Positions 43,989 to 44,977 of a stretch of 46,405 nt of DNA are shown here, piece by piece (position 1 is the stretch's first letter; the number at the start of each line of letters is the position of its first letter). The notes below the pieces were generated by a model. The model was not told the origin of the DNA and made no database searches. It saw only the letters and a program-made list of their open reading frames with translations. The stretch is from a virus (Duplodnaviria > Heunggongvirae > Uroviricota > Caudoviricetes), in IMG/VR virus record IMGVR_UViG_2687453454_000004; one strand, given 5' to 3'. Made by a program: the position numbers and the translations under genes.

Positions 43989-44408
43989 TTACTCATCATC
44001 AATAGATGATACGCAATATTTATTTTTAAATTTAAGGTTCTTTGGCGTAACTTCATCAGATATATCAAAACCGTCCAGAATTCTATTGAATGTAGCTTCT
44101 GGCATATCATCATGAACGGAAATCTCACCCGATCGCTGCTTTCTAACCATGTTATCCACTCGCCAAATTATAGCTTCAGCGTAAACAACATAACTTGGAT
44201 GCTTGATAAAGCGATGATCACCAGAATTCAAGACGCAAGACGGATCGTGGGGGACACCATCCTTGATACTAGAAATATTAACAACTAAAACACAATAACA
44301 ATCGTTAACGGGGTAATAAACAGGATCATTACAAATCACATGAAGATGATTGCATGGCCCAGTTGGGGCAAGCACAGTTCCTTTCCTGTATGGCTGATAA
44401 TCCGTCAT
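43989..44408 (-). CDS. Putative toxin partner of the Panacea-like protein
   Basis: 139 aa; ATGA start/stop overlap with the upstream gene; no recognised fold. Confidence 0.45.
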   Translation of the reverse strand: MTDYQPYRKGTVLAPTGPCNHLHVICNDPVYYPVNDCYCVLVVNISSIKDGVPHDPSCVLNSGDHRFIKHPSYVVYAEAIIWRVDNMVRKQRSGEISVHDDMPEATFNRILDGFDISDEVTPKNLKFKNKYCVSSIDDE

Positions 44409-44977
44409 GATAATTGCAAAGAAAATTCCTTAAGTTTCTGAGATTCTTCCATTTTGCCAATTATACGATTAGCCTCATCCTCGCTTTTACCCTCACTGAT
44501 CAGCATTTCTTTCAGGTCTATAGGCTTACGAGAATTGCCAGGATTGTGCCACTCTGGACAAACGCTTTCTAAATGCGTCATGTTTGCGAGATCAAATCGG
44601 TTCATATGCCCATACAGAGAATAGATTTCATCTAAAATCCGGATATCTGCACGGCTCAACTCATCAAAGACCTCGTCTGCATCCATTTCCCTCGGATCTG
44701 AACGCAACAACACATCATGCCCGTTCGTCTCTATCAGGTTGTACCAGTAGTCACCAATACCTTCAGCCTTACCACGAATCAAGTTCAGCGTATTCGACAT
44801 GACTGGACCAAATTTCATAGAGTAAAGGCTATCTTCGCCGATCATCCTGCCATGCTTCAAAATCGACTTGCGGTTAGACAGATAGAGCAGCTTCATCAAT
44901 TTCAGATATGCCATGCGCCCACCTCGCTTAAGAAGTAGGTATGCAGCCATTTGAGCTACTTTTTCTTCGCAAAACAT
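44405..44977 (-). CDS. Panacea-domain (DUF4065 / GepA-like) putative antitoxin
   Basis: 190 aa; N-terminal AAYLLLK...MAYLKLMKLLYLSNRKSI...DSLYSMKFGPV resembles the DUF4065 family from memory. Confidence 0.55.
   Translation of the reverse strand: MFCEEKVAQMAAYLLLKRGGRMAYLKLMKLLYLSNRKSILKHGRMIGEDSLYSMKFGPVMSNTLNLIRGKAEGIGDYWYNLIETNGHDVLLRSDPREMDADEVFDELSRADIRILDEIYSLYGHMNRFDLANMTHLESVCPEWHNPGNSRKPIDLKEMLISEGKSEDEANRIIGKMEESQKLKEFSLQLS

Follow-up and report, generated by a model that had tools for sequence, protein, structure and literature searches.

A prophage-borne panA-panT gene pair of PanAT cluster T6 beside attR in Escherichia coli, a probable type II toxin-antitoxin module with a predicted MazF-type toxin

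A coupled pair of genes near the prophage boundary

The stretch of DNA analyzed here (IMG/VR virus record IMGVR_UViG_2687453454_000004, hereafter the window) comprises 46,405 nucleotides of Escherichia coli chromosome with a lambdoid prophage, and contains two overlapping minus-strand genes, panA and panT (Table 1), that most probably constitute a prophage-borne type II toxin-antitoxin module of the PanAT family, the toxin being a ribonuclease-like inhibitor of translation. PanA antitoxins and PanT toxins were defined by Kurata et al. 2022 (PNAS 119:e2102212119, PMC8832971), who validated nine new PanAT pairs and list ten in their Table 1. A preliminary description of the window had predicted two open reading frames (ORFs), of 190 and 139 codons, joined by an ATGA start/stop overlap; both are present where it placed them, on the minus strand, which it did not specify.

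The RefSeq/PGAP version of the toxin (WP_014640052.1, product name only "hypothetical protein"; locus L001, 6290-6676) begins at an internal GTG codon and has 128 amino acids, without the conserved first 11 residues and without overlap with panA; the record of phage Lys8385Vzw calls the toxin at 139 amino acids. Among 49 homologues, G10 of the toxin N-terminus is invariant, and M1, P6 and T11 reach a conservation of at least 90%. The ATGA (-4) junction is shared by 14 of 25 homologous loci from other species, with a -1 junction in one more. Thus, the longer form of the toxin and its ATGA coupling to panA are correct.

The 57-aa gene that follows panT is probably co-transcribed with it, and the terminator beyond also serves the convergent xis gene. 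The 57-aa gene was considered as a third component of the module and rejected, because it is kept with the same flanks where other cargo replaces the pair, both in prophages and in phage mEp460. An RNA antitoxin like those of type III systems was also ruled out, because Rfam, searched at permissive E-values, gave only sub-threshold matches, on the terminator hairpin. Promoter-like sites around panA are no more frequent than in shuffled sequence, and a search for operator-like repeats 5' of panA gave only short repeats that are more likely related to the att site.

Table 1. Features of the panA-panT locus and of the prophage ends in the window
Feature	Coordinates	Strand	Remarks
panA	44405..44977	-	190-aa stand-alone Panacea-domain antitoxin (putative); no N-terminal accessory domain; PF13274 match
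panT	43989..44408	-	139-aa putative toxin; predicted MazF/PemK/CcdB-type SH3-like barrel plus three C-terminal helices; Kurata cluster T6
ATGA stop/start overlap of panA and panT	44405..44408	-	TCAT on the plus strand; translational coupling
GAGG, Shine-Dalgarno-like (putative)	44986..44989	-	8 nt 5' of the panA ATG; read from sequence
Candidate sigma-70-like promoter, TTGACC-17-TAAACT	45104..45132	-	upstream of panA, within phage DNA; 9/12 matches; weak
57-aa phage backbone gene (phrog_2741)	43776..43949	-	39 nt 3' of panT
Intrinsic terminator	43732..43757	-	11-bp stem with 6 GC pairs, T tail; closes the panA-panT-57-aa unit
Excisionase gene (xis), PrtN/TorI-type	43447..43728	+	convergent with the pair; PF11112, E = 3e-23; phrog_1300, E = 1e-39
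Tyrosine integrase ORF	1668-2765		adjoins an intact dusA-length ORF at 542-1579
attR-side copy of the dusA 5' repeat	45222..45338	.	prophage boundary; repeat with 1466-1582; annotated as truncated tRNA-dihydrouridine synthase

The antitoxin PanA

The panA product matches the Pfam family SocA_Panacea (PF13274, E = 1.8e-18, 67.9 bits versus a gathering score of 25.7) over residues 27-137, corresponding to profile positions 1-109 of 113, which bears out its preliminary assignment to the Panacea (DUF4065) family; PF13274 is found in 120 of 120 PanA homologues among the matches listed. The GPV motif, which is reported to be critical for neutralization (PMC8832971), is represented by G57-P58-V59; over 47 homologues, P58 never varies, and G57 and V59 show conservation of at least 90%. 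The AlphaFold2 model of PanA is confident throughout (pLDDT 92.6), shows no accessory domain ahead of the Panacea domain, which starts near the N-terminus, and ends in a long C-terminal helix (residues 166-189); no solved structure resembling it was found by sequence search or Foldseek. According to the NetFlax study, stand-alone Panacea antitoxins neutralize their toxins directly, and in multidomain PanAs the task falls to appended elements, for example a pair of C-terminal helices (Phd-C) (PMC10440598). By analogy, the window PanA could contact its toxin through the Panacea core, as other stand-alone PanAs do, or through the conserved helix 166-189.

The Panacea/DUF4065 antitoxin domain is shared with the type VI system SocAB of Caulobacter crescentus, whose antitoxin SocA founded the Panacea family, and the window PanA carries the name "SocA family" in some RefSeq records. 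It is nevertheless extremely improbable that PanA works as SocA does, delivering the toxin to a protease (ClpXP) with no direct block. The NCBIfam equivalog of SocA (NF047745) gives PanA a score of 13.5 bits (cut-off 190), and by this comparison PanA is not a SocA orthologue; the partner is unrelated to SocB, which represents cluster T10 in the scheme of Kurata et al.; and the cluster T6 pair of Pseudomonas moraviensis is stable in pull-downs, as in type II systems, even though the two mechanisms need not exclude each other, as Kurata et al. point out (PMC8832971). Direct binding of the toxin, not its delivery to a protease, would be expected of the type II module.

The toxin PanT

The 139-aa PanT matches no family of Pfam, NCBIfam or PADLOC, its sole match being phrog_19071, of unknown function. 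Its AlphaFold2 model, built from a 49-sequence alignment (pLDDT 93.3, pTM 0.87), has a beta-barrel core (strands at residues 11-16, 19-25, 30-32, 37-47 and 72-83) followed by three helices, and the top 34 Foldseek matches of this model in the Protein Data Bank (PDB) are all MazF (probability up to 1.00, TM 0.47-0.65). On the model and the fold searches, PanT, formerly described as a protein of unknown fold, is predicted to be an SH3-like barrel of the MazF/PemK/CcdB type, in the CcdB/MazF superfamily. The arrangement of a small toxin gene downstream of the antitoxin gene is common to the MazF/PemK(Kid)/EndoA systems (PF02452), with which the characterized T6 relative also shares translation inhibition, whereas their antitoxins MazE, PemI and Kis are AbrB or RHH proteins instead of Panacea proteins. 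MazF has a long beta1-beta2 loop and one C-terminal helix; the PanT model, in contrast, has a tight beta1-beta2 hairpin and three C-terminal helices.

Residue conservation was assessed over 73 diverse members of the toxin family. H21 and G113 are invariant, and L22, D55, C58, G63, H65, F67, S72, Y76 and S117 are at least 90% conserved; H23 and C26 are conserved only in the enterobacterial subgroup. The catalytic pair of E. coli MazF is R29/T52. No arginine is conserved in the PanT family, but strand 19-25 has H21 at its start and strand 37-47 a conserved serine or threonine (S/T46-47) at its end, and by the order of secondary structure elements, without superposition, these may occupy the positions of the MazF arginine and threonine, respectively. 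Short stretches of PanT (HLHVICNDP and VNISS) likewise appear to resemble stretches of MazF-type toxins (HRPAVVLSP and VPCTT). H21, D55, C58 and H65 as a set have no counterpart in the active sites of canonical MazF and Kid, and could form a metal site.

Because the canonical MazF catalytic residues are not recognizable in it, PanT might be supposed to act instead like CcdB, poisoning gyrase and arresting growth via DNA damage instead of inhibiting translation. This is highly improbable: nine MazF/Kid structures outscore CcdB in the fold comparison, consistent with the Foldseek matches, and the T6 toxin that has been validated specifically blocked protein synthesis and not thymidine incorporation (PMC8832971). 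Inhibition of translation by a MazF-fold protein is the activity predicted for PanT.

Membership in PanAT cluster T6

T6 toxins have no match in CDD, are similar by HHpred to the RNases EndoA, PemK and MazF, and are encoded after the antitoxin with -1/-4 overlaps (PMC8832971); the Kurata table classes T6 pairs as noNTD and A|T, with an offset of -4 or -1 for most of them. A single T6 member has been tested for toxicity: the P. moraviensis toxin (WP_083201923.1) is toxic in E. coli, is neutralized by and co-purifies with its PanA (WP_083354365.1), and selectively blocks incorporation of 35S-methionine, not of thymidine (PMC8832971).

A genome scan with the toxin profile yielded 26 loci, two of which belong to strains listed under T6: Pantoea septica LMG 5345 (L009) and 2016-Iso4 (L008, P0281), now Chimaeribacter coloradensis. 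The toxins of these strains are 55-57% identical to PanT of the window, and their measured junctions, -4 and -1, equal the values in the Kurata table. The validated P. moraviensis toxin was found neither among the 341 proteins gathered nor in the best 120 of the profile search. The primer table of Kurata et al. gives its termini as MPGNIL...IRQNNF and the start of its PanA as MIFSEQ (PMC8832971), and two Pseudomonas PanA homologues begin MIFSEQKVAQ. In Pseudomonas sp. TNT2022, a 132-aa toxin (MPGNIVRKGT...RFLRNNNL) overlaps PanA by -1 and, judged by its termini, evidently stands close to the validated toxin, as a near-orthologue. The window pair is 43% (toxin, E = 1e-32) and 41% (PanA, E = 2e-31) identical to the TNT2022 pair, and 37% (toxin) and 43% (PanA) identical to a pair of P. 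fluorescens; its PanA is 41-43% identical to the Pseudomonas PanAs with the MIFSEQKVAQ start.

By these sequence relationships, the window toxin is a member of PanT cluster T6. The preliminary description had proposed the downstream gene as a candidate new toxin within a toxin-antitoxin or defence pair: homology to the validated PanAT family upholds the toxin-antitoxin type of the module, but the partner is not new, cluster T6 having been described in 2022. In common with the P. moraviensis pair, the window pair has a stand-alone Panacea antitoxin encoded first, a toxin of about 130 amino acids with a -1/-4 overlap, no Pfam or CDD domain in a toxin of predicted MazF/PemK-like fold, and an antitoxin N-terminus of the form M(I)F-x-E-x-K-V-A-Q. 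The two differ in that the P. moraviensis locus is marked "NotPhage" in Dataset S1 whereas the window pair is on an E. coli dusA-integrating lambdoid prophage, and in that the enterobacterial toxins have the additional conserved residues H23 and C26, to which the window toxin adds a short acidic C-terminal tail.

Several Pasteurellaceae T6 toxins are named "terminase" in RefSeq, according to the T6 rows of Kurata Dataset S1, which looks like an annotation error spread from their prophage context.

Conservation of the pairing

Of the toxin loci with sufficient DNA upstream, all 24 encode a PanA homologue directly before the toxin and in the same orientation. They come from Gamma-, Alpha- and Betaproteobacteria, with toxin identities down to about 30% and gaps between the two genes of -4 to +62 nt. 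The identities of PanA and toxin are correlated (r = 0.95 when measured against the window pair; r = 0.88 over all 253 locus pairs), which fits inheritance as a unit, with shared phylogeny contributing. An exhaustive HMMER search places 2,715 clusters (50% identity) in the toxin family at E <= 1e-3, of which 937 remain at E <= 1e-10.

A variable slot beside attR, and neighbourhoods in other prophages

The 117-nt direct repeat of the window (1466-1582 versus 45222-45338, 80% identity) represents two dusA-derived att sites. From this repeat, the integrase gene and a truncated tRNA-dihydrouridine synthase (dusA) fragment past the pair, it follows that panA-panT lies within a dusA-integrated prophage, approximately 250 bp from its attR end, as the preliminary description had held in calling its position attR-proximal; that this slot is a defence hotspot, as it also stated, is an assumption. 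Of 5426 complete E. coli genomes, 204 (approximately 4%) have the 1.6-kb panAT segment, on dusA prophages, and it also occurs in phages SKA5 and Lys8385Vzw. The slot is variable, since xis and the 57-aa backbone gene are present in 549 E. coli genomes and the pair in only 204. In the genomes inspected (O157:H7, its relatives and phage mEp460, where it is gp23), the panAT slot contains instead a single gene for a 177-aa protein (WP_000956557.1; L033, 3700-4233, minus strand; L002, 3446-3979, minus strand), which has no Pfam or PADLOC match and no recognizable defence domain.

In lambdoid prophages of Pantoea, the pair is directly downstream of a gene for a cI-type repressor (HTH_3 plus Peptidase_S24), on the same strand and before N (L039-L041, 5435-6405, plus strand). 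In phage lambda, the site downstream of cI is occupied by rexAB. This rexAB-like position therefore suggests, by analogy, that the Pantoea pairs are expressed in lysogens. In prophages of Proteus and Providencia, the pair is at the tail-fibre end, beside a gene for a subtilisin-like Peptidase_S8 and a variable neighbour, which is UPF0167 in two loci and a gene of the Abi_2 abortive-infection family in the third (L036-L038, 2947-6408); together these may form a small cluster with an accessory or defence function. In one Pseudomonas, the pair adjoins a ParE/Phd pair and a phage integrase gene, and in P. fluorescens a reverse transcriptase gene (RVT_1, 345-356 aa) that may be a retron or DRT-like neighbour lies about 1.1 kb 3' of the pair, after two small ORFs (L030, 4174-5211, plus strand; L031, 2033-3103, plus strand).

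These surroundings make it possible, though doubtful, that the pair serves first of all in anti-phage defence encoded by the prophage, with PanA sensing a phage trigger and releasing or activating the MazF-fold toxin, a proposal that differs from the favoured one in biological role and not in molecular parts. The variable slot beside attR, the location of the Pantoea pairs between the repressor gene and N, the Abi_2 neighbour at the Proteus prophage end and the reverse transcriptase gene in P. fluorescens are all consistent with it, and a sensory role for Panacea has been hypothesized in the NetFlax paper (PMC10440598). On the other hand, neither protein matches a PADLOC model, the alternative 177-aa occupant of the slot carries no defence domain that could be recognized, a selection for defence systems from the E. 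coli pangenome makes no mention of Panacea, DUF4065 or MazF (PMC9519451), and the literature search found no phage-challenge data for T6 pairs.

Proposed function and its alternatives

In the proposed type II module, panA would encode a stand-alone Panacea antitoxin and panT, coupled to it via ATGA, a divergent T6 protein of the MazF/PemK fold. By homology to the P. moraviensis pair, free PanT would most likely halt growth through a block of translation, probably with endoribonuclease activity, and PanA would most likely neutralize it by direct protein-protein binding. The prophage context suggests that the role of the module is probably prophage-encoded exclusion or abortive infection, or stabilization of the prophage; a lysogen-expressed exclusion or addiction function is plausible.

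Several observations weigh against this proposal. The link to the validated P. moraviensis pair is indirect, by way of T6 membership and of a near-orthologue known by its termini, and the accessions of the window pair are not mentioned in the literature searched, including the accessible part of the Kurata supplement. PADLOC-DB v2 contains no family that matches PanA or PanT at E <= 0.1 (the 57-aa gene also has no PADLOC match). The window PanT does not match PemK_toxin (PF02452) in Pfam, and of the 73 diverse family members a single one reaches it, at E = 0.11; phmmer and hmmsearch with the toxin and two family profiles gave no significant MazF match among PDB sequences; and hhalign comparisons of the toxin family with E. 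coli MazF and with an alignment of four sequences (MazF, Kid, EndoA and ChpBK, of which Kid was checked against the PDB) gave a probability below 1%. Because no sequence or profile search was significant, the relationship of PanT to MazF is supported at the level of fold only. RNase chemistry is putative for PanT, because the canonical Arg/Thr pair of MazF is not evident and H21, D55, C58 and H65 are conserved instead. Finally, in Dataset S1, Kurata et al. scored as "not Toxic" a gene of cluster T1 that is adjacent to panA in an E. coli prophage (PMC8832971), and so adjacency to PanA alone does not prove toxicity.

The last observation would also fit a conserved phage accessory pair that is no toxin-antitoxin system in E. 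coli, the 139-aa protein being non-toxic or directed solely at targets from phages or other foreign sources, with another partner bound by the Panacea protein. Ten NetFlax candidates were likewise non-toxic in E. coli (PMC10440598), and the toxicity of cluster T6 is known from its one tested member. Such a pair is quite improbable, given 43% (toxin) and 41% (PanA) identity to the near-orthologue of a pair that is toxic and neutralized in E. coli, the retention of all four family-conserved residues (H21, D55, C58 and H65) in the window toxin, and the strict coupling of the two genes in every locus where it could be assessed.

It is unlikely that the T6 toxins have a chemistry other than that of MazF (a metal site, or another catalytic center with a different substrate, formed by H21-D55-C58-H65), or that the pair is a lysogen-expressed abortive infection system in which a stand-alone Panacea protein senses a phage product. 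The latter fits the pair's locations downstream of the cI-type repressor gene in Pantoea and beside Abi_2 in Proteus. The type II module with a translation-inhibiting toxin is the preferred explanation, and the toxin-antitoxin reading is well supported; the window pair, carried by an E. coli prophage, is a real but not new member of the PanAT T6 family already published.

Other features of the prophage arm and flanking chromosome

Between panA and the dusA repeat of attR there is a 13-nt inverted repeat (45079-45091 and 45199-45211, 92% complementary) with the palindrome AACTAGTT occurring twice, which may be a candidate set of attP binding sites for the recombinase or a host factor. Between yfdQ (DUF2303) and the excisionase gene, an ORF of 277 aa (42577-43410, plus strand; 260 aa in RefSeq) has a GC content of 0.27-0.33 in surroundings of approximately 0.45, belongs to a family of unknown function (phrog_14996, E = 2e-177) and draws no hit from Pfam or PADLOC. 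It resembles a moron, a second accessory gene of apparently foreign origin in this arm of the prophage. Beyond the pair and the truncated tRNA-dihydrouridine synthase fragment, the order of genes is a DUF2713 gene, zur, dinF and lexA. The host DUF2713 gene (45698-46405, minus strand) extends past the end of the window (L001, 7999-8984), and is annotated as frameshifted in YJ3 and 2014C-3097 and intact in O157:H7.

Significance

As a PanAT pair of cluster T6, the module offers little conceptual gain, since a 2022 publication already covers the family together with its predicted fold, toxicity and neutralization. It is nonetheless carried by approximately one in twenty-five complete E. coli genomes with its toxin unnamed and its coupling concealed by the PGAP start, and because no Pfam, NCBIfam or PADLOC model represents the approximately 2,700 clusters of the toxin family, the family is invisible to routine annotation and to defence finders. 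A conceptual model for defence by PanAT is provided by CapRel(SJ46), a prophage toxin restrained by an antitoxin element that doubles as phage sensor (Zhang et al. 2022, PMC9712102); CapRel(SJ46) is a single polypeptide with a tRNA-pyrophosphorylating toxSAS toxin and demonstrated defence, whereas the window pair consists of two genes with a predicted MazF-fold toxin and is known from sequence. If T6 toxins did prove to have another chemistry, or a stand-alone Panacea protein to sense a phage product, this would amount to a novel mechanism for an effector, or give a free-standing Panacea antitoxin its first defined trigger. Through the recurrence of such pairs in classical lysogen-expressed accessory slots, the E. 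coli pair may be a convenient native-host system in which to address the question of defence by cluster T6.

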